Positions 3,011-64,000 of a stretch of DNA of 64,000 nucleotides are shown here, one piece after another. The position numbers were made by a program, and so were the translations under genes. Under the pieces are notes generated by a model, which saw only the letters and a list, made by a program, of their open reading frames with translations, was not told where the DNA came from and ran no database searches. The stretch is from an uncultured Elusimicrobia bacterium (GTDB lineage: Bacteria; Elusimicrobiota; Elusimicrobia; 2-02-FULL-39-32): positions 92,911 to 156,910 of the forward strand of contig CAZFYO010000003.1 in assembly GCA_964523525.1 (NCBI GenBank), read 5' to 3'. Position 1 is the first letter of the stretch. The number at the start of each line of letters is the position of its first letter.

Positions 3011-4438
3011 ATGGAACCTTCGACGATTGACGTAAAAATCAAATCCAACACCCTGCGCCCCGCGGGCGGATCCTCCTCAACAGACCTCAAAGTTCCACCC
3101 TATTCCATCGAAGCCGAAATGGCTGTCCTGGGCTGTATGCTCATCGAAAAGGACGCCCTTGAGCAGGCGCTCGAAATGCTGCATCCCGAAAGTTTTTACG
3201 ACGACCGGCATGGGAAGCTTTTCGCCGCCATCAAGGAGATGTCGAGCGGGAGCGCCGCGATTGATATCGTCACGCTGGTGGACCAACTCAAAAAGACCGG
3301 CACGCTGGAAGCCGTGGGAGGAGCCGATTATCTGACGGAAGTGATGAACGTGGTTCCCACCGCGGCCCATGTGGAAGCCTACGCGCGGATCGTACAGCAG
3401 AAAGAGATTTTGCGGGAGCTGATCAATACTTCCACGAACGTGGTCAGCAGCTGCTACAAGCAGGACGAAGAGCCTGGATTCCTGCTGGACAGCGCGGAGC
3501 AGGCCATCTACAAGATCGCCGACCGGCTGAACAGCAAAAAAGGGCTCCTGCCGCTTTCCGAAATGCTGGGCGAAACCATCGAGCAGCTGGAAACCCTGCA
3601 TCAGAAAAAAGCCGCCGTCACCGGCGTCCCGACGGGCTTCACCAAATTTGACACCATGACGTCCGGTTTCCAGCCGGGCAATCTCGTGATCCTGGCCGCG
3701 CGGCCCGGCATGGGTAAAACCGCGCTGGCGCTGGACATCGCCTTGCACGCCGGCGTGGTCAAGAAAATTCCCACCATCATCTACTCGCTCGAAATGAGCC
3801 AGCAGGAAATCGTGATGCGGCTGTTGTCCGCGCTCTCCATGGTCCCGCTGGGCAAACTGCGCACCGGGTTTTTCCGCAAGGAAGACTGGCCGGTGCTGAC
3901 GCGCAAGGCGGAAGTTCTGTCCGAGTCCCCGATTTACCTGGACCATTCCTCGTCGGGCGTTTCCATTATGACCCTGCGGGCCACGGCGCGGCGGCTCGCG
4001 TCGCAGTTGCGCGCCAAGGGCACGCCGCTCGGCCTCATCGTCATCGACTATTTGCAGCTCATGCAGGGTTCGCGCCGCACGCCGGAAAGCCGCCAGACGG
4101 AAATCGCGGAAATTTCTCGTTCGCTCAAAGGCCTGGCGCTCGATCTTAAAGTGCCCATCATCGCGCTTTCGCAGCTGAACCGCAGCCCCGAAGAGCACGG
4201 CCGCGACGGCAAGCCCCAGCTTTCCCACCTCCGCGAATCGGGCGCCATCGAACAGGACGCTGACCTCGTGGGCTTTATCTACCGCGAAGGCATGTACAAG
4301 AAGGACCCCGATCCCGAGACGCAGCGCAAGGCCAAGCTTATCATCGCCAAGCAGCGTAACGGCCCTCTGGGCGAAGTCGATCTCGTCTTCATCGGCGAAT
4401 GCGCGCGCTTCCAGAACCTCGAGCCCGACGCCGAGTAA
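3011..4438 (+). CDS. dnaB: Replicative DNA helicase DnaB
   Basis: DnaB N-terminal domain (PPYSIEAEMAVLGCML), Walker A (ARPGMGKT), DnaB-family motifs (IVIDYLQLM, SQLNR); 475 aa. Confidence 0.9.
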   Translation: MEPSTIDVKIKSNTLRPAGGSSSTDLKVPPYSIEAEMAVLGCMLIEKDALEQALEMLHPESFYDDRHGKLFAAIKEMSSGSAAIDIVTLVDQLKKTGTLEAVGGADYLTEVMNVVPTAAHVEAYARIVQQKEILRELINTSTNVVSSCYKQDEEPGFLLDSAEQAIYKIADRLNSKKGLLPLSEMLGETIEQLETLHQKKAAVTGVPTGFTKFDTMTSGFQPGNLVILAARPGMGKTALALDIALHAGVVKKIPTIIYSLEMSQQEIVMRLLSALSMVPLGKLRTGFFRKEDWPVLTRKAEVLSESPIYLDHSSSGVSIMTLRATARRLASQLRAKGTPLGLIVIDYLQLMQGSRRTPESRQTEIAEISRSLKGLALDLKVPIIALSQLNRSPEEHGRDGKPQLSHLRESGAIEQDADLVGFIYREGMYKKDPDPETQRKAKLIIAKQRNGPLGEVDLVFIGECARFQNLEPDAE

Positions 4439-4527
4439 TTTCTTCCCTAAATAATCGCCTTCCGCAGGGCCTTCCGGAGGTTTGAAAATCCCGCCGGAAC
4501 TTCATAGAATAATCCGACGATAAAACC

Positions 4528-5658
4528 ATGCCTACAACGCAAAAATTCTTCCGCCCCTGCTGGGTCGAAATCGACCACGACCGTCTTCAAAACAACCTGC
4601 AAGCCATCGCGAAACGGCTTCCGCACCGGAACATCCTGGCCGTGATCAAAGCCAACGCCTACGGGCACGGAGTGGTGCCGGTGGCGCGCACTCTGGCGAA
4701 ATCCAAAATCAAACCCAAATTTTTCGGCATCACGTCCATCGAAGAAGCCCTGCAGATCAAAAAAGCGGGCCTCAAAATCCCCAGCCTGATATTGGGCAAT
4801 ATCTTCCCGTTTTCAAACCTCGTGCACGCCGTCAAGAATGATATCCGGGTGACCGTGGCGAGCGCGGAGTCCGCGAAGATGTGCGACCATTACGGCAAGA
4901 AGCTCCGCCGGAAAGTGCATGCGCACGCGAAGATCGATACCGGAATGGGGCGGATCGGCGTCAACGTCTACAAGAGCGCCGAGTTTGTCCGGCAGATCAG
5001 CGCGCTCAGGCACGTCGAGCTCGAAGGGCTCTACACGCATTTTTCCGATTCCGCCGATGATCCCGGCTTCACGCAAAAGCAGATGGGGCTTTTCGCCGGC
5101 CTTGTGAAACAGGTGAAATCGGAAGGCATCTCCATACCGTACATCCACTGCGCCAACAGCGCGGCGATTTTCAAATATGACGCGGCGCACTTCACGCTGG
5201 TGCGTCCGGGCATTTCGTTGTATGGGATTCTCCCGATGCGCGAGCACTCGTTTTCGCTGGAACCCATCCTCGCCTGGAAGAGTCGCATCGTGTTTCTGAA
5301 AGACGTCCCGGTTGGGACGCCGGTCAGCTACGCGCGCACGTTCGTGACGCAGAGACCATCGCGCATCGCGACCGCGGCGTTCGGCTACGCCGACGGGTTT
5401 CGCCGCAGCTTTTCAAACAAGGCGCAGGTGCTGGTGAACGGGAAGCGCGCGCCGGTACTGGGCCGCATCACCATGGATATGACCATGCTCGACGTCACCG
5501 ATATCCCGGGAGTCCGGGTCGGGGACGAGGTGGTGATCCTGGGTCGGCAGGGAAAAGATGAAGTGTCCGTCTGGGAGCTGGCGGCCTGGGCGGGAACGTC
5601 GCCCTACGAAATATTTTGCGGCATCTCGACGCGAGTGCCGCGCGTGGACGTGCGCTGA
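4528..5658 (+). CDS. alr: Alanine racemase
   Basis: PLP-lysine region (AVIKANAYGHG) and C-terminal alanine-racemase domain; dnaB-alr adjacency as in E. coli. Confidence 0.85.
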   Translation: MPTTQKFFRPCWVEIDHDRLQNNLQAIAKRLPHRNILAVIKANAYGHGVVPVARTLAKSKIKPKFFGITSIEEALQIKKAGLKIPSLILGNIFPFSNLVHAVKNDIRVTVASAESAKMCDHYGKKLRRKVHAHAKIDTGMGRIGVNVYKSAEFVRQISALRHVELEGLYTHFSDSADDPGFTQKQMGLFAGLVKQVKSEGISIPYIHCANSAAIFKYDAAHFTLVRPGISLYGILPMREHSFSLEPILAWKSRIVFLKDVPVGTPVSYARTFVTQRPSRIATAAFGYADGFRRSFSNKAQVLVNGKRAPVLGRITMDMTMLDVTDIPGVRVGDEVVILGRQGKDEVSVWELAAWAGTSPYEIFCGISTRVPRVDVR

Positions 5659-51184: not shown

Positions 51185-51231
51185 AAAAGAGAAAGGCCTG
51201 ATCGCTAACGCGATTACGGCCTTTCTCTTTT
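51185..51231. terminator. Bidirectional intrinsic-terminator-like hairpin between the NmrA-like gene and aceK
   Basis: 14-bp stem (AAAAGAGAAAGGCC / GGCCTTTCTCTTTT) with inner ATCGC/GCGAT stem; U-rich 3' flank on both strands; the aceK stop codon lies in the loop. Confidence 0.5.
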
Positions 51232-52974
51232 GAGGCGGGACGGTTCCTTGTAGGGGAGTATTTCCGCGATTTCGCCGGCTGCGAGGCGCTTCTGGAGGTC
51301 CTGCCAGTAGCGCACCGTGAAGAGGTCGCCGTGGAGCGGGTCGAAGACCTTGCGCATCCTCGGGTCGAGTCCGATGAACGTCCTGAACTCCTGGGGAAAG
51401 ATGTCGGCATCGCCCACGTAGAACCAGGGTTCGCTTTCCAGCTCCTCGCTTTCGTCCCGCGCCGCCGGGACCTCGCGGATATTGCAGTCCGTCAGCAGGC
51501 ATAGCTCATCGTAGTCGTAAAAGACCACCCGTTCGTTGCGGGTCACGCCGAAATTCTTCAGCAAAATGTCGCCCGGAAAGATGTTGGCCTTGGCCATGTC
51601 CTTGATGGCGCTCCCAAAATCCACCGCCGCATCCCGCGCCAGCTCTTCCGGCGCTTCCTTCAAGTAAATGTTGAGCGGCACGACGCGGCGCTCCGTATAG
51701 AGATGGCGGATGATCACGGTGTCGCCGGAAATCGAGACGGATTTGGCGGCCTGTTGAGTGAGCTCCTGCAGAAGCTCTTCAGTGAAGCGGCTCTTATCGA
51801 ACTCCAAATGTTCAAATTCTTGCGCATCCACAAGGCGCCCGGCGCGGTCGTGCTGGAACACGAGGTGGTACTTGGCCAATACCTGCTGGCGCGACGTGCG
51901 TTTTGTGTAACTGAATTTGTCTTTAATGATTTTGAAAACTACGTCATAAGATGGCAGCTCGAACACGGTCATCACCATGCCCTTTTCGCCCGGGGAGATG
52001 CGGAATTTATCTTTTGATTCCTGAAGGTGGCGGTAGAGGTCGCGGTAGAGCTCGGTTTTTCCGTGCTTGTTGAATCCGATGGAAATGTAGAGCTCGGCTT
52101 TGGGCTTTTGCGGCATTATAGACTGCAGGAAATCGACCAGCTCCCGGGGCTTTTTGACCTTCACGTGAAAATAGGAGCGCGTGAAGCTGAATACGATGCT
52201 GACTTCGGAATCATTGAGCAAAACCGCGTCCACCAGGATCTGGCCCGCAGGGTTGCGGAGCGCCAACACCAGCGGCAGTTCGCCTTTGGCGGCGCGGATT
52301 TTACCGACGATAAATGCGCCGTTGCCGCGATAAAAGACGGGCTTGATCACGTCGATCTGTTCGAACTTTGCCGAGCCGAAACGGGATTGGAGCTGCTGTT
52401 CAATGCGCCGCGCGCACAGTTCCGCGTCTCCGCCGATATCTTCGAATGGCGCGTTGAATTCGTAGCGTTTCAGAAGCTCTATCAAAAGGTTCGGCAGGGG
52501 CCCGTTGCTGGGATAGGAACGGTAAATGGGTTTTTCGCTCTGGATCGGCGGCGTATCGAGCTCGGAGTCGAGATACTCCGCGCCGGGCTCGGTGCCAATC
52601 ACCACCATGACCTTGCGCAGGGTGGAGTTGTAAAACGTTTTGGCCAGTTCGATATCCTGCCGCGCCGCTACGAGAGCGGTAAAATTCATTTTAGCCTGCG
52701 ACCAGAGGCGGCTGTCGTTGTGTCCGCTGCCGACCAGCTCCTTGACCTTGGGGATCAGCTGGTTGATGATCTTGGTATAGAGGTCGAGGCGCTCGATGGC
52801 GTCGCGCTGCGCGCCGGTCCAGTCGCACTTCTCGAAACGGGTGCGGGCCCGGGAGGTGATCTCCGTAAATTTTTCCTGATAGATGTTGAACGCTTCGAGG
52901 ATGAGCGCGGCGCAGCCGGCGGCGGCGGCCGCGCGGGCGGCGGGGTCGGAGGAGGAGGACGGTTCGCGGCTCAT
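51214..52974 (-). CDS. aceK: Isocitrate dehydrogenase kinase/phosphatase
   Basis: AceK-family similarity over 586 aa (…NIYQEKF…, kinase-like C-terminal region); divergent from aceB. Coordinates are taken from the ORF track; my own base indexing disagreed by 1 nt near 52.92 kb. Confidence 0.85.
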   Translation of the reverse strand: MSREPSSSSDPAARAAAAAGCAALILEAFNIYQEKFTEITSRARTRFEKCDWTGAQRDAIERLDLYTKIINQLIPKVKELVGSGHNDSRLWSQAKMNFTALVAARQDIELAKTFYNSTLRKVMVVIGTEPGAEYLDSELDTPPIQSEKPIYRSYPSNGPLPNLLIELLKRYEFNAPFEDIGGDAELCARRIEQQLQSRFGSAKFEQIDVIKPVFYRGNGAFIVGKIRAAKGELPLVLALRNPAGQILVDAVLLNDSEVSIVFSFTRSYFHVKVKKPRELVDFLQSIMPQKPKAELYISIGFNKHGKTELYRDLYRHLQESKDKFRISPGEKGMVMTVFELPSYDVVFKIIKDKFSYTKRTSRQQVLAKYHLVFQHDRAGRLVDAQEFEHLEFDKSRFTEELLQELTQQAAKSVSISGDTVIIRHLYTERRVVPLNIYLKEAPEELARDAAVDFGSAIKDMAKANIFPGDILLKNFGVTRNERVVFYDYDELCLLTDCNIREVPAARDESEELESEPWFYVGDADIFPQEFRTFIGLDPRMRKVFDPLHGDLFTVRYWQDLQKRLAAGEIAEILPYKEPSRLKRERP

Positions 52975-53062
52975 GCTATTTCTTATCAGGAATGGCCCGT
53001 TTAATCAAGAGGCAGAAACGAGCCGAAAAAGGCGTGGCAAGTGCGTTGCGTCTCGATGTCCG

Positions 53063-53102
53063 GCGGAAAAAAATAAACTGAAATTTCCGCTTGAAATTTT
53101 CC
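53063..53102. promoter_or_regulatory. Candidate operator in the aceK-aceB divergent intergenic region
   Basis: Inverted repeat GCGGAAA-N14-TTTCCGC (53063-53090) plus direct repeat TGAAATTTCC / TGAAATTTTCC (53079-53102), overlapping a -35-like TTGAAA about 35 nt upstream of the aceB ATG. Confidence 0.3.
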
Positions 53103-53130
53103 TTAACTTCATTAGAGTTAGAGAGCCATT

Positions 53131-54732
53131 ATGCCAAACGACCCCTATTCCGCCCTCGGAGTCCGGTTCACGGAACCGGTCGCGCCGGACCAGCAAAGCA
53201 TCCTTTCGGAGGCCGCGGTCTCCTTTTTAGCCAAACTCGTCCGCGAATTCGGGCCAAGGCGCGCGGAGCTGCTGCGTAAACGCACCGAACGGCAGATGCG
53301 GATTGACGACGGCCTGAGGCCTTCATTTCTGCTGGAAACCCACGGCGTGAGGGAAGGAAACTGGACCTGCGCTCCCATCCCGAAGGATTTGATGGACCGC
53401 CGGGTTGAGATCACCGGTCCCACCGACCGCAAGATGATCATCAACGCGCTCAATTGCGGCGCCAACGTCTTCATGGCGGACTTTGAGGACTCGAACGCTC
53501 CCACCTGGAAGAACATGATCCAGGGCCAGATCAACCTGCGCGACGCGGTCCGCGGCAAAATCGATTTTACCAGCCCCGAGGGCAAGGAATATAAGCTTAA
53601 ACCCAAAACCGCGACCCTGATGGTCCGGCCGCGCGGCTGGCACCTCGAAGAAAAGCACGTGCTTGTCGACGGAAAACCGGTCTCGGCTTCACTTTTTGAT
53701 TTTGCGGTCTTCTTCTTCCACAACGCGCAGGCGCTCATCGATAAAGGCACCGGCCCTTACTTTTATCTGCCCAAAATGGAGAGCCATCTGGAAGCGCGGC
53801 TCTGGAACGACGTATTTTTGCGCGCTCAGGACGAGTTGAAGATTCCGCGCGGCACGATCCGCGCGACCGTGTTGATCGAAACGATCCTGGCGGCCTTCGA
53901 GATGGACGAAATCCTCTATGAGCTGCGCGACCATTCCGCCGGGCTCAACTGCGGGCGATGGGACTACATCTTCAGCTTCATCAAGAAGTTCTGCGCCTAT
54001 CCCGATAATATATTCCCCGACCGCGCCCAGGTCGGCATGACCACCCATTTCCTCCGTTCCTATTCCAAACTGCTCATTCAGACCTGCCACCGGCGCGGCA
54101 TCCACGCGATGGGCGGCATGGCGGCGCAGATTCCCATTAAAAACAATCCCGCGGCCAACGACGCGGCCATGGCCAAGGTGCGGGCCGACAAGGAACGCGA
54201 AGTCACCGACGGCCATGACGGCACCTGGGTGGCGCATCCCGACCTCGTGGGCATCGCCAAAGAGATTTTTGACAAACATATGAAGGGCCCGCATCAAATT
54301 GATAAAAAAATCACCGATCTGAAGGTGACGGCCGAGGATTTATTGATGGTTCCCAAGGGCGATATCACCGAAGCAGGGCTGCGCACCAACATCGACGTGG
54401 GTGTGGCGTATCTCGAAGCCTGGCTGCGCGGACAGGGCTGCGTTCCCATCTACAATTTGATGGAAGACGCCGCGACCTCCGAGATTTCTCGGGCGCAGGT
54501 CTGGCAGTGGATCCATCACCGGGCCAAAATGACCGACGGGCGGATGGTGACCGCCGAGCTGTACCGTTCGCTGCTGAAGGAAGTCATTGAAGCGGTGCGC
54601 TCGCATCTGGGCCAGGAAAAATTTGAGCAGAGCAAATTCGCCTTGGCCAGCCTTCTTTTCGAAAAGATGGTGACGGCCGAACACTTCCCGCAGTTTCTGA
54701 CGCTGGAAGCCTATGGCAAACTCGAGGGATAA
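53131..54732 (+). CDS. aceB: Malate synthase A
   Basis: Malate synthase A family similarity across 533 aa (…[22 protein letters not shown]…[40 protein letters not shown]…). Confidence 0.9.
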
Positions 54733-54736
54733 CTCC

Positions 54737-56035
54737 ATGAACGAATCACAGCGGATCGCGCAGGACTGGAAAAGAAATCCCCGTTGGAAAGGAATCGTTC
54801 GCAATTATTCGCCTGCCGATGTACTGCGTTTGCGCGGGTCCATGAAGATTGAGCATACGCTCGCGCGGCGCGGAGCGGAAAAATTTTGGAAGCTGCTGCA
54901 TTCGGAGCCCTACATTCACGCTTTGGGCGCCATGACGGGCAACCAGGCCGTCGAGATGGTGCAGGCGGGGCTGAAAGCGATCTATTTGAGCGGCTGGCAG
55001 GTTGCCGCCGACGCCAACAATACGGGGCAGATGTATCCCGACCAGAGTTTATATGCCGTGAGCTCGGTGCCCGAGAAGGTGCAGGCGATCAACCGCGCGT
55101 TGCAGCGCGCCGATCAGGTTTGGCACCTCGAGCGGAAGTCCAAGATCGACTGGTTTGCGCCCATTGTGGCCGATGCCGAGGCTGGGTTTGGCGGGGCGTT
55201 GAATGCCTACGAGCTCATGAAGGCGATGATCGAAGCGGGCGCCGCCGCGGTTCACTTTGAAGACCAGCTCGCCAGCGAAAAAAAGTGCGGACACATGGGC
55301 GGCAAAGTCCTCGTGCCCGCGCAGGAGTTTATTCGCAAACTCGAGGCGGCGCGCCTCGCTTCCGACGTGCTCGGGGTCCCGACTTTGATCGTGGCGCGCA
55401 CGGATGCCGATGGAGCCAAGCTTTTAACCAGCGATATCGACGAGCGCGACCAGGAATTCATGACCGGCGAACGGACCGCGGAAGGGTTTTACCGCATCAA
55501 GGCCGGCGTGGACTGCGCCATCGCGCGCGGCGTCGCCTACGCGCCCTACGCGGACCTGGTCTGGTGCGAAACCTCCAAGCCCGATCTGCATGACGCCAAA
55601 AAATTCGCGGAAGGCGTGCTCAAAAAGTATCCCCGCAAGCTGCTGGCCTACAACTGTTCGCCTTCCTTCAACTGGAAATTGAACCTGAGCCCGTCGCAAA
55701 TCGCAAAATTCCAACAGGAAATCGGCCGGATGGGTTATAAATTCCAGTTTGTGACGCTCGCGGGCTTCCACGTGCTGAACGCGGGCATGTTTGAGCTGGC
55801 CTCCGGCTACAAAAAGGCCGGCATGGCCGCCTACTCCAAATTCCAGGAAAAAGAATTCGAGATGGAAAAGAAACAGGGATTTGCCGCCGTCAAACATCAG
55901 AGTTTCGTCGGCGCGGGCTATTTCGATGAGATTCAAAACGTACTGACCGGCGGCCAATCGTCCACAAAGGCGCTCAAAGACTCCACCGAGGAAGACCAGT
56001 TCAAGCCGGGTCAGAAGAAAGGCCGGCGCAAGTAA
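54737..56035 (+). CDS. aceA: Isocitrate lyase
   Basis: Isocitrate lyase active-site region (KKCGHMGGK) and family similarity; start at ATG 54737, 5 nt after the aceB stop. Confidence 0.9.
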
Positions 56036-57169
56036 GTGACGTCAAAAATTTCTTCCTTTAACCCTCCTATCCGCACCCTCCTGGGGCCCGGACCCTCCAA
56101 CCTGCACCCGCGCGTTCTGGCCGCGATGGCCAAACCCACGATTGGGCACCTCGATCCCGAGTTTATCCGCATGATGGACGAGCTGCAGCTGCTTCTGCGC
56201 GACGCTTTTCAGACCCGGAATGAAATGACGATGGTCGTCTCCGGCCCCGGGTCGGCCGGAATGGAAACCTGCTTCGTGAATTTGATCGAACCCGGCGAGA
56301 AAGTGATCGTCTGCCAGAACGGCGTCTTCGGAGGCCGGATGAAGGAGAACGTCGAACGCGCGGGCGGAACCTGCGTTTTGATCGAAGACCCCTGGGGCCG
56401 CGCGGTGGACCCGCAAAAGCTCGAGGACGCGCTCAAGAAAAACCCCGACGCGAAACTGGTCGCTTTCGTCCACGCGGAAACGTCCACGGGCGCGCTGAGC
56501 GACGCGAAGACCCTGGCGCAGATCGCGCACAGCGCGAATTGCCTCGTGATCGCCGATACCGTGACATCTTTGGGCGGCGTTCCGCTTCTGGTGGACGAGT
56601 GGGAGCTGGACGCGGTCTATTCCGGCAGCCAGAAGTGCCTGTCCTGCGCTCCGGGACTGTCGCCCATCACGTTCAGCGAGCGGGCCATGAAGAAAGTGAA
56701 GGGACGCTCCGGCAAGGCGCGCAGCTGGTTCCTGGACCTGAACCTCGTCACGGCCTATTGGAACGCCGGGACAGGGGCCGGCGGCAAGCGGGTCTATCAC
56801 CATACCGCTCCGGTCAACGCTCTTTACGGGCTGCACGAGGCGCTGGTTCTCCTGCAGGAAGAGGGGATCCAAAATTCCTGGGCTCGCCATCAAAAAAATC
56901 ATGAAATTTTGAAAAAAGAGCTGGCCGCGCTGGGCATGACGTTCTTCGTGCCCGAGAAAGAGCGGCTGCCGCAATTGAACGCGGTCGTGATTCCCGAGGG
57001 AAAAGACGACGCGCAGATCCGTTCCCGCCTCCTGAACGAGTTCGGCATCGAAATCGGCGCGGGGCTGGGCGTGCTCGCCGGAAAAATCTGGCGTATCGGC
57101 CTGATGGGCTACTCCTCCAACCCCGAAAACGTCAGGCACCTTAAAGAAGCGCTGAAGAAACTGATTTGA
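56036..57169 (+). CDS. Class V aminotransferase (alanine/serine--glyoxylate aminotransferase-like)
   Basis: PLP fold-type I class V features (…FVHAETSTGAL…VDEWELDAVYSGSQKCLSCAPGLS…); GTG start abutting the aceA stop. Confidence 0.8.
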   Translation: MTSKISSFNPPIRTLLGPGPSNLHPRVLAAMAKPTIGHLDPEFIRMMDELQLLLRDAFQTRNEMTMVVSGPGSAGMETCFVNLIEPGEKVIVCQNGVFGGRMKENVERAGGTCVLIEDPWGRAVDPQKLEDALKKNPDAKLVAFVHAETSTGALSDAKTLAQIAHSANCLVIADTVTSLGGVPLLVDEWELDAVYSGSQKCLSCAPGLSPITFSERAMKKVKGRSGKARSWFLDLNLVTAYWNAGTGAGGKRVYHHTAPVNALYGLHEALVLLQEEGIQNSWARHQKNHEILKKELAALGMTFFVPEKERLPQLNAVVIPEGKDDAQIRSRLLNEFGIEIGAGLGVLAGKIWRIGLMGYSSNPENVRHLKEALKKLI

Positions 57170-57197
57170 TGGCACGCAAAATGAAGGTGAAATCTTG

Positions 57198-58292
57198 ATG
57201 GCGCGCGAAATCCGGCCCGCTCTGAGAACGGGCGTCAGCGTCAAAGCCCAGCTGATCGCCCGGCTGCGCTTCAGCCACGTCCTCACGCTTTCCGAGAAGG
57301 AATTTGCCCGGATGATCAGCGACATCGAGAATGATCCGCTTTTCCAGAAATTTCTATACCCCAAAGATTCCGGACCCAAGGCCATTTTCAAGCGGCGCGT
57401 CCCGCACCAGCGCCTGTCCCCCGCCTTCTACGAAGCGAAGGACGAGATCAGCGCCGGCGCGGAAGGCGTGGACGTTGAGAATATCCTGGAGCAGCACCGG
57501 GGAGTGATCGATTTGATCCGCAAAATCGGCCAGGAGTCCTTTGAAAAGCATTTCCTCTACAAGGAGGGGACCGAATCCGCCGCTTCCATCGCCGAGAAGT
57601 GCGGGGTTTTCCCGGAGGACGTGATGAGGGTTCAGGCGGCGGTCACCCAGCTTTCCGTGCATTCGGAGTTTTTCAATCCGACCACACTGCCGGCCGAAAC
57701 GGGCCTGCGCTACACCCTGATCGCCCGGATCGACCCCGATGAACAGGGCTCGTTCTGGATCTCGTTCACGTCGCCGCACCTGGCGGCGGGGCGTTACGTC
57801 ATCAATCCGGAGCGCGTGGACGCGCTCAAAAAAGATTTGGCCGCCTCCGAAAGAAAAGCGGTCACGAACCTGATTCAGAAGCTGGAGCTCATCAACCTGC
57901 GGCAGGACACCCTGCACAAGATGCTGCAGGAAGTCCTGGTCCGGCAGAAAGGCTATCTGAGCTCCAACGACGCGTCGCGCCGCCTGCCGCTTTCCCAGCG
58001 CGACATGGCCGCCCACCTCGGCGTTGCCGCCTCCACGGTTTGCCGGGCGCTCTACGGAAAAAGCGTGCTCGCTCCCTGGGGCCGGGAAATGCCGCTCAAG
58101 GATTTCTTCGTCAACAAGAAAAACGCCGCCGAGGAGTGGGTCCGGCAGATCCTCGAGGAAATGCCCGAGGAAAAAAGGGACCAGTTGAGCGACAATGATT
58201 TGCGCGGCCTCCTCGCCCAGCGTTTTCGGTGCAAGGCGTCCCGCAGGTCCGTCAATCTCTATCGCCGCGCGGTTGAACAAAAATCAAAGTAG
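57198..58292 (+). CDS. rpoN: Compact sigma-54-like factor (RpoN family), about 365 aa
   Basis: Region-I-like N-terminus (VLTLSEKEFARMISDIENDPLFQK), sigma-54 HTH (LPLSQRDMAAHLGVAASTVCRAL…LKDFF) and RpoN-box-like C-terminus (SRRSVNLYRRA). Shorter than typical RpoN. Confidence 0.65.
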   Translation: MAREIRPALRTGVSVKAQLIARLRFSHVLTLSEKEFARMISDIENDPLFQKFLYPKDSGPKAIFKRRVPHQRLSPAFYEAKDEISAGAEGVDVENILEQHRGVIDLIRKIGQESFEKHFLYKEGTESAASIAEKCGVFPEDVMRVQAAVTQLSVHSEFFNPTTLPAETGLRYTLIARIDPDEQGSFWISFTSPHLAAGRYVINPERVDALKKDLAASERKAVTNLIQKLELINLRQDTLHKMLQEVLVRQKGYLSSNDASRRLPLSQRDMAAHLGVAASTVCRALYGKSVLAPWGREMPLKDFFVNKKNAAEEWVRQILEEMPEEKRDQLSDNDLRGLLAQRFRCKASRRSVNLYRRAVEQKSK

Positions 58293-58466
58293 TTTCTCCG
58301 ACGGAAAAGTGCCTCCCGCGGCCCCAAATTGTTACACATTATTTACATTAACTTCAGGTCTAATTTAACTCCCGACTGATATACTTTTGGCTCTGACGCA
58401 GAGCTTAAATAAGGAAAGGAGAACCTCCTGAAAGAGGCCAGCCTCGGGAAAAACCGTCCAACCGCC

Positions 58467-61400
58467 GTGAATCGGGGCCGCAAAGCGGTCGCCTGCGCTC
58501 TCGTGCTGTCCCTTTTACAGTCCGTGCTGCTCGCCCCGGCGGTTCAGGCGGGGTTGTGGCAGGACCGCCGCGAAGCGGCGAAGTCGCTTCCCTTGCTGGC
58601 GCAGCTGCCGGCGGACCTGGCCCCTATGGGTCCGTCGAACTGGCAGATGGACGCGCCAGCCAGCCCGCTCGCTTCGAGCCTGCAGAATTTCGCCGCTCCT
58701 TCCTGGCTCCGAAACCTTCCCCTCCAATACGCCAGTCTGAGGCGTTTGTCATTCCCGCCCGGCTGGAACCCTTCCGACCCCATCGTCATCCATATCCAGG
58801 ACGTGCACCAGAACGCCGAGGCGCAGGAGAACATCAGCCTGACGCTGCGTGAGCTGATCCGCGGGGGCCGGTTGAACCTGGTCGCGCTCGAAGGCTCGTT
58901 TGAAACGATGGATTTCAGCCGGTTCCGCTCCTACGAGGACGCGGATTCGGTGCGAAAGGTAACGGACTATCTGCTGCGCGAGGGGAAAATTTCCGGCGCG
59001 GTGCATGCCGCGTTCGCCAGCGAGAAGGCCCCGCCCAAATTTGCCGGCGTCGATGACCGCGAGCACTATTTCGCGCATGTCGATGCATACAAGAATTCGC
59101 GGGGCGCGGCGCAGGAAGTGAAAAAGGCTCTGGCGTCCCAAATGCAGGCGCTGGAAACGGAGAAAGCCGCGAAACTGAACCCCGATCTCAAAGCATTTGA
59201 CGCCGCCGTGCGCGATTTCCGCGCTGAAAAAACGAAGCTGGGCGCTTACGTCCAGTTTTTGACGGCCCGAAGCAAGAAGACCCTTCCCGAGGTCCAGAAA
59301 TTCCTGAAAGCCTTCAAAGCCGAATCGAGCCTCGATTTCGCGCGGGCGGAAAAAGAGCGCGGCGAGATCATCAACAAGCTCGTGAAGAACCTCGGCCGCG
59401 ATCAGGTCAACGGACTTTTGAATGCCAGCCTCTCTTATCGCGTGGGCCGAACGCGCCACGGCGATTTCTACGTCTATCTCCGCGATCTTTGCGCCAAGAA
59501 CGGCGTCGAGTTTGCAAAGTACGCCGCGATGGACGCCTATCTCCAATATGTTTTGTTGTCGGACAGCATCAACGCCGAGAAGCTGCTGCATGAAGTGGAT
59601 TCAATGGAAGCGGCGGGCTATCAGGCGCTCGCCAAAACCCCGCAGGAAACCATCCTGATTAAAAAATCCAAATGGCTTCATCTGGCGGACAAGCTGGTGG
59701 ATTACTCGCTGTCTCCCAAAGAGTGGAAGGAATATCACTCGATGCGGGACTTGGGAGATTCCATGCTGCGCGATCTGGAGCCTTTCGAGGGATTCTTTAA
59801 AGAGGCCCTGATTCGCGATGAGGCGATGGCCGCCAACTTCATCCGCTCCATCGGGACGGATAGGAATGCGGCGGCGGTGCTGGTGACCGGCGGATTCCAT
59901 TCCGAGGGCATTGAAGAGCGTCTGAAACGCAAAGGGATCGCGGTGTTGACGCTGGCACCCAAAATCAGCAAGGTCGAGACGAAAGACGGCGCGGCGTACC
60001 TCAACGTTTTCACGCAGGAAAAAACCCCGCTCGAAAAACTCTTCCAGGGAGAAAAGCTTTTCGTCACTCCGGAAGTGTTTTCACATTCCACGGAATTGTC
60101 TGCTGCGGCCTTTATCGCCCTCTTCAAACGGACAGTTGAGTCAGCCAACGACGCATTCCACCGGCTGAGCGGTTCAAAAGGCGCCGCCTACAATATCATT
60201 TCGGTTGAGCTCACTGAGGGCATCGTCGGTACATTGGAAGGGCCGCAGGGCTCGGAGCGCTTCAAAATCCAGGCCAACGATGAATCCATCGAAAGCGTTC
60301 AATTCATTCCGTTTTCAGGCATGCGCGGCGTCATGGGTCTTTTCCTGGGGAAGGCCAAAGCCATGGGCCTGTACGGCGAAAAATTATGGACGTTTGTCAG
60401 CCGGATCAATTCCGCGCCGATGTCGGTCAAAATGGTGATGGCCGCCGCGGTCGCCCTGCCGCTGTCGTTCCTGTTCAATGAAATGGCGCCCGGACTGGTG
60501 ATGATGGCCACGGTCGGAAGCTCGATGGGGCCCGGCGAGACCGGAAACGAAGCGCGCGCCAAAGTGCTCTGGCACATCGGCTTCGCGCCCGTGCCGAACG
60601 CGCCGGAACGGACCCTTTTTCTGCGAAGCGAAGCGGAGGCCGCCCGCCTCATGCCGGTTCCCCCGGCGGACACGTGGGTCGAAGTCCGTTACCTGGGAGA
60701 GCGGTCCGAATTCCTGCGCATGTCCATGTACCGGCGCGATCCGGGTGAGACCGAGGACCAGTTTTGGGGACGGCACATGCGCGATTCCGAGGAACGGAAA
60801 CTTTTCGACCTGTACCTCACCATCGATCCGTCGTTTTCCGACACGGTCTGGCTGAGTCCGGGCAAGGCGTATCCGGCGCTCCGCGAATTGTTCGGCCCCG
60901 GCGGCTATTCCAGCGAGGCCTGGATACGCGACACGCTCCTGCCCTGGCTGACCGAGCGCGGGTTCGTGGAAGTAAAAGTCGGCCTGCAGGAATCCAGCGA
61001 TAAGCTTTTCAAATCCCTGGGGTTCACGAAATTCGGCGGAGGGACGATGCGAAAAGTCCTGAACGCCAAGTTAAGGCGGCGTTCGGCGCGTTCTCTGACT
61101 CGGGCACCCGCGCCCTGGACGCTCGAAGAGCGGAGGAAGGACGCCATCCTGCGGATATTGAACGGTAGGACGGAGTCGGCCAACATTGTCCAGCTGTACG
61201 CGGAATTCGCGAAGGACCCGGCCTTTGAAGACGCGACCCAATCCGAGTTCGCCGACCTGGTGATGCGGACGCCCGCGATCCTTGACCACCCGATGCTGAG
61301 CCGGTCCCGGAGCGGGGCGTGGCACGTAGGTGATATGGCTCAAATCGTGGCCAAACAGCTGGTGTCCTCAAGCGACCGGCTTGTTTCCAGGTTTACGGCC

Positions 61401-64000
61401 GATTTAGCAGAACCCCTGAGGCAGGTTATTCTCTCGGCCCTTGCGAAATCAAGAGAAGCCGGGAGTGGAGGATATCAGACTTTTATCGATAACTTAACTT
61501 TTGAGGATCGTCCGATAAGCGAAGAAGAATATATGGATATGCTCTATACGTGGTCTGAAAAGTCCACTGTTGAATTTAACAGCGATCTTCAAAAAAGAGT
61601 TGAGGACAGCATTGTCAGGCAATACCAGCGCAATGGGTCAAAAGTAGAGTCGAGGAGAGGGGCTCAGGCGCGAGTATCCGGCAAGGGAAATTATTCGATG
61701 ACGGTTCTGATCAGCCAGCAGGGTTATCCCGCTCTGACATTCAACATTCTCTTGTCCAACAGAAGGAGGTTTTTCGCGGATCCGGACAACCATATTCTCG
61801 CCCAGCATCGTCCTATATCGTTCGGCGCTTATAATTACTTGCTGCTCCTCCAATCAAGGGTTTTTGATCTGGATGACGCGATACTTGATCTTGTTATCAA
61901 GCATGAGATTGAAGAGATGATGGTAAAACACCGGTCCAGGAACCGGATCGGCGCGGCGGAGGCTCACCGCCTTGCGCTTCAATCCTCGGGGGATGAGCGC
62001 TCTGTTGGAAAAGTGCAGGCCGCGCTTCGCGCACAGAATCAAAAAGACGTTTCCGTCCGCAGGGTGCAAAAATTCCTGGGATCCGCGATCGACGAATCCT
62101 TCATCCGGGAAAATGTGGATGCGCTGGAATTGGTGTGCCTGGACGCTGACGACTATCTGGAACTCCTGCCTTCGGATTATTTGGAGGTTAAGAAATATGC
62201 AGCTAACGTCAGTCCGATTCATTTGATGCTGGATTTGATATTTCTAAATTGGAAAGACCCCGCGGAGCCTGCCGAGTTCATCGCGAATTTGCCCCGCATT
62301 CAGCGGCTTTTGGGGAAGGATTGGTTTACGCACAATTGGACCAATCTGGTAACGCAGTACAGCCAGATGGGCGCGGAGCAATTCAATGGAATTTTTGAGC
62401 GTCAGAGGAACGATCCTTGGATCAGGAATAAAAGCCGGGACTGGCTGAGAGAGTATTTTCTGGACATTCCCAATATCCGCCCCATGAAGGAGGAAAAGGA
62501 CATTGAAGCCGTTTTTGAAGGCGGCCTGGAAAACAGCGGATCCGAATTTGACGACTTAAGATCCGCGATCCGGTCCTATCCCGATATATTGACCGAATCC
62601 ATCAAGGCAATTTACAGGGTTCAAGCGGTCGATTTCAGGACGGATGACATCGTTAAGGTAGGGGTCAAAAAAATCGGCGACGGCACCAGCAACGCGGTTT
62701 TCCTGCTGACTGAAATCGTTTTGTCCAATGGCAGGGTGGTTTCCCAATATCCGATCGTCATGAAGGTCAGCAAGGAATCGACCTATGATCTGACCCATCA
62801 GGGAATGCAGCAGATCGTTCAGGCCGCGCGGGAGCTTGCCGCTCAGGATCCTCCGCTGTATCCCAGGATCGGGGGGCAGTGGATTTTTGACTATCTGCAT
62901 GAGTTTTGGATTGTGAGCGAAGAGTTTGTCCCGGGTCCCACGCTTTGGAACGAGATAGCAGGAGTCCGGATGGATCCCGATCTCGGCGATGCCGAAAAGG
63001 AAAGAAGGATCATCGATCTCCTTGCCAGGCAGTTCGACGTGTATCTTCGAGCCTGGAAAACGTGGAACGAACGTTCCGGGGCCCCGCATTGGATCGAAAG
63101 CAAATTTATCGGCGATCCCAATTCTCTTAATATCATCGGAAGAATGATTGTTGACCTGAACTCGCTGCAGGAGTCCATGACACCGGCCGAAATCGTCGAA
63201 CAGATGATACCGGAGGATGTTCTGGCGGATTCGTCTCCACTGTATTCAATATTTGTCCGGCTGGCCCAGGATATCATGGGCGGAGACAGCGGCCGCCAGT
63301 TTCTGTACAGCTCGCACAATCTCAAAATTTTGAGCGCGCTGGAAGAGTATGAGGAATCCGAGGCCGAAAATGACGGCGGCATTGAGCCCGTTAACTCTCT
63401 CGCCTACTGGATCGCCGATCTGGCGCGCTTGAGCCCGTCCAAAGCGAGAGCGGTCGGCCTCGCGGGGCTGGCCGTGGAAATCCCGGCGCTGATCGCGGCC
63501 GGACTGGTGTTGCCGTTCTTCGGCATGGCAGCCTTCCTGGGAGTCTTCGCGGGCGCCCACATCCTCCTGGAAAAAATTTCTGCCGGCCGCCAGAACCGCG
63601 GCCCCCCGACTTTACGCCAGACGGCCGCCCAAATCATCGCGTTCCTTCCGTATCTGCTGATTTCCATCGCAGGAATTTTTTCCGACTCCATTTTAAGTCA
63701 GTATTTCCTTCCCGCTCTCACCGCGGTCTTCGTCCACGCGAAATTTGACCTGCCACTGATCACCCGGCGTTTCCCCAAAGCCGTTTTCAGCCCTGCCGCG
63801 GCCGCCGGGCCTGCGATGCGCCTGTCGGGACAGGGATTGACGGCCGCGCAGCACGTCGTGGTCAACGAAGCGGTCGCAGGATTTTTCAACCGTCCGGTGA
63901 CGGCAAGTGAGCGGCGCATGCTGATCCCAAGAACCCAGGACTACCGCGCTCTGGATCCCACCGGCGCGCTGGCGGCGGAAGGCGTCCGCATCTATGCCCT
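58467..64000 (+). CDS. Giant secreted/membrane multidomain protein, 5' portion (frame open to the window end; more than 1,840 codons in window)
   Basis: Frame 0 has stops at 58377-58379 and 58410-58412 and then none to position 64000 (checked by hand at several coordinates). Not in the track, presumably because no stop lies in the window. Strong SD AAGGAAAGGAGA at 58411-58422; candidate starts CTG 58428 or GTG 58467; signal-peptide-like N-terminus (NRGRKAVACALVLSLLQSVLLAPAVQA). Confidence 0.75.
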   Translation, partial: MNRGRKAVACALVLSLLQSVLLAPAVQAGLWQDRREAAKSLPLLAQLPADLAPMGPSNWQMDAPASPLASSLQNFAAPSWLRNLPLQYASLRRLSFPPGWNPSDPIVIHIQDVHQNAEAQENISLTLRELIRGGRLNLVALEGSFETMDFSRFRSYEDADSVRKVTDYLLREGKISGAVHAAFASEKAPPKFAGVDDREHYFAHVDAYKNSRGAAQEVKKALASQMQALETEKAAKLNPDLKAFDAAVRDFRAEKTKLGAYVQFLTARSKKTLPEVQKFLKAFKAESSLDFARAEKERGEIINKLVKNLGRDQVNGLLNASLSYRVGRTRHGDFYVYLRDLCAKNGVEFAKYAAMDAYLQYVLLSDSINAEKLLHEVDSMEAAGYQALAKTPQETILIKKSKWLHLADKLVDYSLSPKEWKEYHSMRDLGDSMLRDLEPFEGFFKEALIRDEAMAANFIRSIGTDRNAAAVLVTGGFHSEGIEERLKRKGIAVLTLAPKISKVETKDGAAYLNVFTQEKTPLEKLFQGEKLFVTPEVFSHSTELSAAAFIALFKRTVESANDAFHRLSGSKGAAYNIISVELTEGIVGTLEGPQGSERFKIQANDESIESVQFIPFSGMRGVMGLFLGKAKAMGLYGEKLWTFVSRINSAPMSVKMVMAAAVALPLSFLFNEMAPGLVMMATVGSSMGPGETGNEARAKVLWHIGFAPVPNAPERTLFLRSEAEAARLMPVPPADTWVEVRYLGERSEFLRMSMYRRDPGETEDQFWGRHMRDSEERKLFDLYLTIDPSFSDTVWLSPGKAYPALRELFGPGGYSSEAWIRDTLLPWLTERGFVEVKVGLQESSDKLFKSLGFTKFGGGTMRKVLNAKLRRRSARSLTRAPAPWTLEERRKDAILRILNGRTESANIVQLYAEFAKDPAFEDATQSEFADLVMRTPAILDHPMLSRSRSGAWHVGDMAQIVAKQLVSSSDRLVSRFTADLAEPLRQVILSALAKSREAGSGGYQTFIDNLTFEDRPISEEEYMDMLYTWSEKSTVEFNSDLQKRVEDSIVRQYQRNGSKVESRRGAQARVSGKGNYSMTVLISQQGYPALTFNILLSNRRRFFADPDNHILAQHRPISFGAYNYLLLLQSRVFDLDDAILDLVIKHEIEEMMVKHRSRNRIGAAEAHRLALQSSGDERSVGKVQAALRAQNQKDVSVRRVQKFLGSAIDESFIRENVDALELVCLDADDYLELLPSDYLEVKKYAANVSPIHLMLDLIFLNWKDPAEPAEFIANLPRIQRLLGKDWFTHNWTNLVTQYSQMGAEQFNGIFERQRNDPWIRNKSRDWLREYFLDIPNIRPMKEEKDIEAVFEGGLENSGSEFDDLRSAIRSYPDILTESIKAIYRVQAVDFRTDDIVKVGVKKIGDGTSNAVFLLTEIVLSNGRVVSQYPIVMKVSKESTYDLTHQGMQQIVQAARELAAQDPPLYPRIGGQWIFDYLHEFWIVSEEFVPGPTLWNEIAGVRMDPDLGDAEKERRIIDLLARQFDVYLRAWKTWNERSGAPHWIESKFIGDPNSLNIIGRMIVDLNSLQESMTPAEIVEQMIPEDVLADSSPLYSIFVRLAQDIMGGDSGRQFLYSSHNLKILSALEEYEESEAENDGGIEPVNSLAYWIADLARLSPSKARAVGLAGLAVEIPALIAAGLVLPFFGMAAFLGVFAGAHILLEKISAGRQNRGPPTLRQTAAQIIAFLPYLLISIAGIFSDSILSQYFLPALTAVFVHAKFDLPLITRRFPKAVFSPAAAAGPAMRLSGQGLTAAQHVVVNEAVAGFFNRPVTASERRMLIPRTQDYRALDPTGALAAEGVRIYA

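Follow-up and report, generated by a model that had tools for sequence, protein, structure and literature searches.

Is the product of a short open reading frame (ORF) at the end of a glyoxylate-shunt gene cluster, in the genome of an uncultured Elusimicrobia bacterium, a sigma-54 factor, and if so, of what kind? The question is raised by a stretch of 64,000 nucleotides (nt) of contig CAZFYO010000003.1 (assembly GCA_964523525.1, positions 92,911 to 156,910 of the forward strand; hereafter the window, to which all coordinates without a locus prefix refer), in which a first-pass annotation had noticed a sigma-54-like gene with a product about 100 residues shorter than typical RpoN and had suggested that it could be a second, specialised sigma-54 paralogue. 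Among bacterial sigma classes, sigma-54 is, to our knowledge, alone in depending strictly on an ATPase activator, and its arrangement of domains is considered almost constant. The analyses presented here indicate that the protein is probably an enhancer-dependent sigma factor, belonging to a compact family of sigma-54 proteins known almost exclusively from Elusimicrobia.

The gene and its promoter-reading half

As read from the ORF, the coding sequence occupies positions 57198-58292 of the + strand and specifies 364 residues from an ATG, while initiation at an alternative TTG at 57195 gives a product of 365 residues. The ATG at 57198 is the likely start because a Shine-Dalgarno-like sequence, GAAGGTGA (57183..57190, + strand, by direct reading of the sequence), is located 7 nt upstream and because an identical database protein, P0001, also comprises 364 residues. 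Two details of the first-pass annotation consequently require amendment: position 57170, given there as the start, is only the first base past the stop codon of the preceding aminotransferase gene (56036-57169), and the product length of 365 residues applies only to the TTG. The sigma-54-like character of this short ORF, the 28-nt gap separating it from the aminotransferase gene, and its shortness (364 residues vs 477 in Escherichia coli RpoN) all stand. That the ORF represents a real gene rather than a chance reading frame is indicated by the existence of full-length homologues at 34-77% identity, and orthologues at 69-77% identity keep intact frames.

Residues 181-364 (57738..58289, + strand) form the sigma-54 DNA-binding half, consisting of a beta region, an extra-long helix, a helix-turn-helix (HTH), and an RpoN domain. 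Specifically, the Pfam domain Sigma54_DBD (PF04552) matches residues 229-360 at 6e-18, the sole Pfam match in the protein. With a profile of the compact family, residues 167-365 align with Aquifex sigmaN (5ui5) at 8.5e-27, and the sigma-54 of E. coli or Klebsiella is matched at ~1e-20; hhalign places residues 182-364 on residues 281-474 of E. coli RpoN with a probability of 98.5%. The HTH predicted to contact the -12 element (residues 258-285; 57969..58052, + strand) contains R283, the sole invariant residue across 148 family members, which aligns with R383 of the -12 HTH of E. coli. The RpoN box is present as the variant SRRSVNLYR (58239..58265, + strand; canonical ARRTVAKYR), in which R349, R350, and R356 are nearly invariant (at least 90% conserved in the family) and in which the A to N and K to L changes are typical of compact family members. 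The full-length AlphaFold (AF2) model is confident, with a predicted local distance difference test score (pLDDT) of 83 and a predicted template-modelling score (pTM) of 0.76. Because of the domain match, the profile matches, and the conserved arginines, the promoter-reading half is assigned to sigma-54, in agreement with the HTH and the RpoN-box-like C-terminus noted in the first-pass annotation; on sequence grounds, the C-terminal half is beyond doubt an unambiguous sigma-54 promoter-recognition module, with an HTH for the -12 element and an RpoN box for the -24 element.

The N-terminal half and the extent of the family

Preceding the DNA-binding half are a Region-I-like N-terminus at residues 8-51 (...LTLSEKEFARMISDIENDPLFQK; 57219..57350), delineated using hhalign and the family hidden Markov model (HMM); a family-specific segment at residues 52-125 (57351..57572), delineated in family alignments and without a Pfam match, which stands in place of Region II and the N-terminal subdomain of the core-binding domain (CBD); and a helical segment at residues 126-160 (57573..57677) whose resemblance to the C-terminal CBD subdomain in hhalign is weak and below any family threshold (all on the + strand). 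Residues 8-51 align weakly with residues 8-49 of canonical RpoN (hhalign P=1.4e-3 vs 0.16 for the reversed control), and the family HMM matches Region I in register in six of eight canonical RpoN proteins, with independent E values of 0.003-1.7. Similarly, residues 126-154 align weakly with residues 230-258 of E. coli, within the C-terminal CBD subdomain (P=1.7e-4 vs 0.02 for the reversed control). In a greedy profile alignment, residues 1-364 pair collinearly with residues 1-470 of E. coli RpoN; no detectable counterpart of E. coli residues 50-229 (Region II plus the N-terminal CBD subdomain) is present, and a 74-residue segment carrying the conserved motifs RFPxTRLSxSFYE and IxKIGxxxFEKYFLY stands there instead. 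When the N-terminal 185 residues are compared with a small profile of canonical RpoN, the hhalign probability is only 5-10%, and in a single relative the Pfam model of Region I, the activator-interacting domain (AID), is seen as a weak match (E=0.073).

The Region-I-like N-terminus described in the first-pass annotation is thus visible by eye, with weak statistical support and with the Pfam AID unmatched. Homology to Region I is plausible, and a complete CBD is, judging from the alignments, absent. We read the protein as homologous to sigma-54 over its full length yet strongly reduced, and not as a shortened ordinary RpoN, because the DNA-binding half alone passes any family threshold.

The same architecture is widespread. 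A word-indexed search identified 16 homologues (P0001 and 15 further full-length proteins), all of ~360 residues, of which those with names are labelled 'hypothetical protein' of Elusimicrobia metagenome-assembled genomes (MAGs). An exhaustive profile search yielded 297 clusters (50% identity) at E<1e-30, nearly all of them full-length at ~345-400 residues and with a few fragments and extended calls among them; a clear score gap separates the family (<=1e-107) from canonical RpoN (>=1e-20), the latter being matched over the DNA-binding domain only. The GTDB species genomes yielded 21 loci, every one of them from Elusimicrobia/Elusimicrobiota, and the named members all derive from Elusimicrobia MAGs with one exception, such that the family is, so far, almost only known from Elusimicrobia. 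No description of the compact family was found in the literature, and it is apparently undescribed so far. The exception (locus L033) is a gene at 4267-5298, near the start of record CP070781.1 (751,409 nt, GCA_020346305.1), which carries the label 'Dehalococcoidia bacterium'; the record is mislabelled, or else the family reaches beyond Elusimicrobia. A family member is also present at 10001-11044 of L024, from the magnetotactic Elusimicrobiota MAG Candidatus Obscuribacterium magneticum DUR003, and in P0016 (JGI, 384 residues, on a contig of 240,522 nt) the C-terminal half is frameshifted relative to P0014, either through an error in sequencing or because the copy is a true pseudogene.

Activators, candidate promoters and the probable glyoxylate-shunt operon

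A partnership between the compact sigma and bacterial enhancer-binding proteins (bEBPs) is supported by gene context. An NtrC-type bEBP gene is found within three genes of the sigma gene in ~7 of ~24 independent loci (L006, L011, L013, L026, L034, L035, and L036). The order sigma, histidine kinase (HK), bEBP is seen in L034 and L036, in L011 and L013, where the contig then ends, and in L006, where genes for a 2-hydroxyacid dehydrogenase and ackA follow; L035 has sigma followed by bEBP, and in L026 an HK gene and then a bEBP gene are located ~3 kb upstream of sigma. The loops read in six of these bEBPs (L006:4899-6293; L011:4401-5753; L026:2179-3543; L035:9899-11284; L034:12979-14340; L036:7591-8937) are GAFTDA in four cases and GSFTGA in two, with the exact GAFTGA in none. 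GAFTDA is a known working bEBP variant (PMC4641369). The proposal that GAFTDA co-varies with the divergent Region I was dropped as a diagnostic because Desulfovibrio, whose sigma-54 is canonical, also has working bEBPs that carry GAFTDA; the consistency of the non-GAFTGA loops is notable, yet it may be meaningless. In the search of the window for bEBPs, the two tblastn matches consist of receiver domains only.

Elsewhere the sigma gene is followed by HK and ackA (L001, L017), by ackA and pfk (L004, L014), by ackA and the contig end (L015), or by HK and a receiver gene (L033). In L004 and L014 a second compact paralogue, sharing 35% identity with the first and located 2 kb from it, is encoded on the other strand, next to a PAS kinase. 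The ackA-linked orthologue group spans diverse members at 43-77% identity, and its linkage suggests a connection with acetate/C2 metabolism.

Candidate promoters of the -24/-12 type accompany these genes. In 343 kb of non-redundant loci plus the window, the motif TGG[CT]A-N6-TTGC occurs 13 times, compared with 4.7 +/- 2.2 in shuffled sequence, and at least 7 of the 13 sites precede a gene start by 30-100 nt and are oriented in the direction of that gene. One site is conserved, within otherwise diverged DNA, before three orthologous genes for giant fn3/Big_5 surface proteins, and ~70 nt 5' of it, at an enhancer-like position, is an inverted repeat, TATGG-N7-CCATA, in L004 and L015 (conserved site and upstream inverted repeat at L004:660-745, L014:4770-4855, and L015:1985-2060). 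In L004 and L014, and probably in L015, this conserved promoter heads a string consisting of the giant gene, a TPR gene, the compact sigma gene, and ackA; such a position would place the sigma gene under a sigma-54-type promoter and make a positive feedback loop possible. Further sites are found directly after the bEBP gene in L034 (TGGCAAGAAAATTGCA), in L036, where the core is as in L034 and is preceded by a terminator-like hairpin, in L035 (TGGCAGTAATATTGCG), and in L026 (TGGCGGAAAAATTGCA). The emerging consensus, TGGCAA-N5-TTGCAT, is near the canonical TGGCAC-N5-TTGC, which fits the conservation of the DNA-reading residues.

Within the window, the unusual gene context recorded in the first-pass annotation is confirmed: the setting is not that of lptB-rpoN-hpf-ptsN, and the neighbours are instead aceB, aceA, an aminotransferase gene, and a giant gene. 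Neither lptB nor hpf is among the annotated genes of the window, in which a few ORFs are left without annotation. Pfam matches identify malate synthase (aceB, 53131-54732), isocitrate lyase (aceA, 54713-56035), and the class-V aminotransferase (56036-57169), all on the + strand, and the order aceA, aminotransferase, sigma is repeated in L007 and L031 (69-100% identity), where ackA follows in L007. Given that the gaps from aceB to the sigma gene are at most 28 nt and that no terminator-like site is present in the intergenic stretches between them, the sigma gene is probably the last gene of an aceB-aceA-aminotransferase operon. Divergent from aceB, on the - strand, is a full-length gene for AceK, the isocitrate dehydrogenase kinase/phosphatase (51214-52974); with AceK beside aceB and aceA, this Elusimicrobia MAG has the whole control set of the glyoxylate bypass at one locus.

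A candidate -24/-12 promoter, TGGCAAGTGCGTTGCG (53035..53050, + strand), lies 81 nt before aceB in the intergenic region of 156 nt between aceK and aceB; its position and its agreement with the family motif make it a reasonable promoter candidate. A sigma-70-like site at 53091-53118 is less plausible as the aceB promoter because its -10 hexamer ends 12 nt before the aceB ATG, such that almost no leader would remain. A palindrome, GCGGAAA-N14-TTTCCGC (53063-53090), lies near the transcription start expected from the 53035 site and overlaps the -35 hexamer of the sigma-70-like site; it could be the operator for an aceBA repressor. In addition, a perfect -24 half-site, TGGCAC, is present at 57170-57175, right after the aminotransferase stop codon; it has no GC at -12 spacing, is too near the ATG at 57198 for a normal promoter, and is not conserved in L007, where both genes overlap.

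Downstream of the sigma gene, a giant ORF (58467-64000, + strand) runs off the end of the window; it encodes at least 1844 residues, begins with a signal-peptide-like N-terminus (VNRGRKAVACALVLSLLQSVLLAPAVQA), and has no Pfam match over the 1862 residues available. Its frame is open from 58413, to which the previously given gap of 120 nt had been counted, and the true gap is 174 nt because no start codon precedes the GTG at 58467, where the gene call in L031 begins as well. Direct reading of 58293-58466 agrees with the earlier observation that no GG-N10-GC promoter precedes the giant gene. A link between the sigma gene and the giant gene was considered and set aside: there is no -24/-12 site, and the adjacency is unconserved, with the sigma orthologues followed by ackA or a kinase gene. 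Residues 96-644 of the giant ORF are 43% identical to a frame at L014:18985-20646, ~8 kb from the compact sigma gene of L014. The rest of the window carries the usual chromosomal housekeeping genes (ychF, dnaB, alr, mlaEFD, radA, ispD, cysS, folD, metF, and a Bat/MoxR cluster).

Function, origin and meaning

As an enhancer-dependent sigma factor, the compact protein would bind core RNA polymerase via a reduced, divergent core-binding region, form closed complexes at TGGCA-N6-TTGC promoters, and then be switched on by a bEBP through its Region-I-like N-terminus. In the window, the sigma gene may be co-transcribed with aceB, aceA, and the aminotransferase gene, possibly from the 53035 site, which would couple its level to C2/acetate metabolism.

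Several observations weigh against this function. Neither Sigma54_AID (PF00309) nor Sigma54_CBD (PF04963), both searched for in the window protein, produced a match even at E<=10, and neither is among the 25 commonest Pfam matches of 132 diverse relatives. The NCBIfam model TIGR02395 (rpoN_sigma) scores 76.1 bits vs a cutoff of 277.35, with the match confined to model positions 280-426, its C-terminal third. None of the profile matches in the N-terminal half is significant by itself (hhalign probabilities of 17-49%), and the search for CBD homology by fold was uninformative, as the isolated N-terminal 218 residues were modelled poorly (pLDDT 59) and Foldseek returned nothing at E<0.1. In E. 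coli RpoN, a region at ~120-215 suffices for core binding, and it is this region that has no detectable counterpart in the compact protein. Finally, a search of the 64-kb window identified no GAFTGA-type bEBP, and the 53035 site, the window's only exact TGGCA-N6-TTGC, is at chance level when taken alone (0.68 expected).

The absence of a canonical core-binding subdomain, together with the finding that the DNA-binding half alone passes thresholds, lends some weight to a different explanation, namely that the protein is a non-sigma regulator whose sigma-54 DNA-binding domain occupies -24/-12 sites, where it would act as a roadblock, competitor, or co-factor and would not bind core RNA polymerase. 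The predicted structure is compact (pTM 0.76), and precedent exists in engineered RpoN-box peptides, which are reported to block sigma-54 promoters (PMC6491466). We nevertheless consider this explanation improbable: the N-terminus resembles Region I in register, the repeated co-location of the compact sigma gene with bEBP genes and their target promoters is most simply understood if the protein is the sigma of those bEBPs, and a regulator of this kind would need a canonical RpoN, none of which was seen in searches of little power. Moreover, we know of no role for Region I outside activator-controlled sigma function. A decaying remnant or truncated rpoN pseudogene might likewise be short and devoid of a recognisable AID and CBD, and one relative, P0016, is indeed frameshifted; however, ~300 clusters share the same length and are conserved over their full extent, including the N-terminal half, orthologues at 69-77% identity are intact, and the AF2 model is confident (pLDDT 83). 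The conservation pattern effectively refutes decay.

If the protein is accepted as an enhancer-dependent sigma factor, the second question is whether it stands beside a canonical full-length RpoN encoded elsewhere in the genome, as a second, specialised paralogue. Its non-canonical context at the end of a metabolic operon, the formation of paralogues within the family (two per locus in L004 and L014), and the resemblance of the bEBP-bearing cassettes to the secondary rpoN copies of Cereibacter and Bradyrhizobium are all in keeping with this proposal, which we regard as unlikely for three reasons: the ackA-linked group is kept at 43-77% identity, as fits a core rather than an accessory gene; searches of little power brought up canonical RpoN proteins from other taxa only and none from Elusimicrobia; and two surveys from 2011 reported reference Elusimicrobia genomes to be without RpoN and its activators (PMC3162934, PMC3372290). 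These absence reports lead us to lean toward a lineage whose sigma-54 is the short form, the very scenario that the first-pass annotation had set against its own proposal. The compact protein would, then, most likely represent the sigma-54 native to this lineage, accompanied by paralogues in some genomes, and not a supplement to canonical RpoN. Only tentatively can this be extended to the view that non-gut Elusimicrobia have no canonical RpoN and conduct all enhancer-dependent transcription through minimal sigma-54s with a halved, re-invented core-binding region, several paralogues per genome being arranged, in the manner of extracytoplasmic function (ECF) sigma factors, in self-contained cassettes of sigma, kinase, bEBP, and target promoter.

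Sigma-54, bEBPs, and -24/-12 promoters are familiar elements. The apparent novelty lies in a large family without annotation, whose members have Region II and half of the CBD replaced, and in the recurrent sigma-kinase-bEBP-promoter cassette. Like canonical sigma-54 (E. coli RpoN, 477 residues; 5nwt, 7qwp), with which it is homologous from residue ~181 to the end with the key arginines kept, the compact form is associated with promoters fitting TGGCA-N6-TTGC and with nearby bEBP genes. Unlike the canonical protein, it is ~110 residues shorter, lacks the acidic Region II, has the 74-residue family-specific segment in place of E. coli residues 50-229, carries the box SRRSVNLYR, and is encoded outside the lptB-rpoN-hpf-ptsN context. 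The shortest structurally characterised sigma-54 known to us, the sigmaN of Aquifex aeolicus (398 residues; 5ui5), is also nearly without Region II, but it keeps a complete two-subdomain CBD, in which the compact family would, from a weak alignment, have ~50 residues fewer. Specialised RpoN paralogues with cognate bEBPs are known in Cereibacter sphaeroides (RpoN1-4), Bradyrhizobium (RpoN1/2), and Ralstonia (RpoN1/2), and as in those systems more than one sigma-54-type gene can occur per genome beside particular activators or targets; their proteins, however, are full-length and canonical, whereas every copy seen here is compact, and the sigma-HK-bEBP-promoter arrangement recurs as a cassette. 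A functional analogy, and only that, can be drawn with ECF sigma-70 modules, in which a small sigma gene is likewise accompanied by its own signalling partner beside a target promoter, although the protein family is unrelated and control here would be exerted by an ATPase activator, not an anti-sigma factor.

A natural family that keeps the promoter-reading half and a Region-I-like tail, without Region II and about half of the CBD, would define a minimal sigma-54 and would show an alternative docking on RNA polymerase. Because its members carry the label 'hypothetical protein' at NCBI and fail the rpoN model, regulon reconstructions for Elusimicrobia miss enhancer-dependent transcription entirely. 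The sigma-kinase-bEBP-promoter cassettes, if each is self-contained, would constitute a new regulatory architecture for the sigma-54 class, and the window itself suggests shared regulation of the glyoxylate-shunt operon and the sigma gene, possibly exerted by the sigma factor that the gene encodes.

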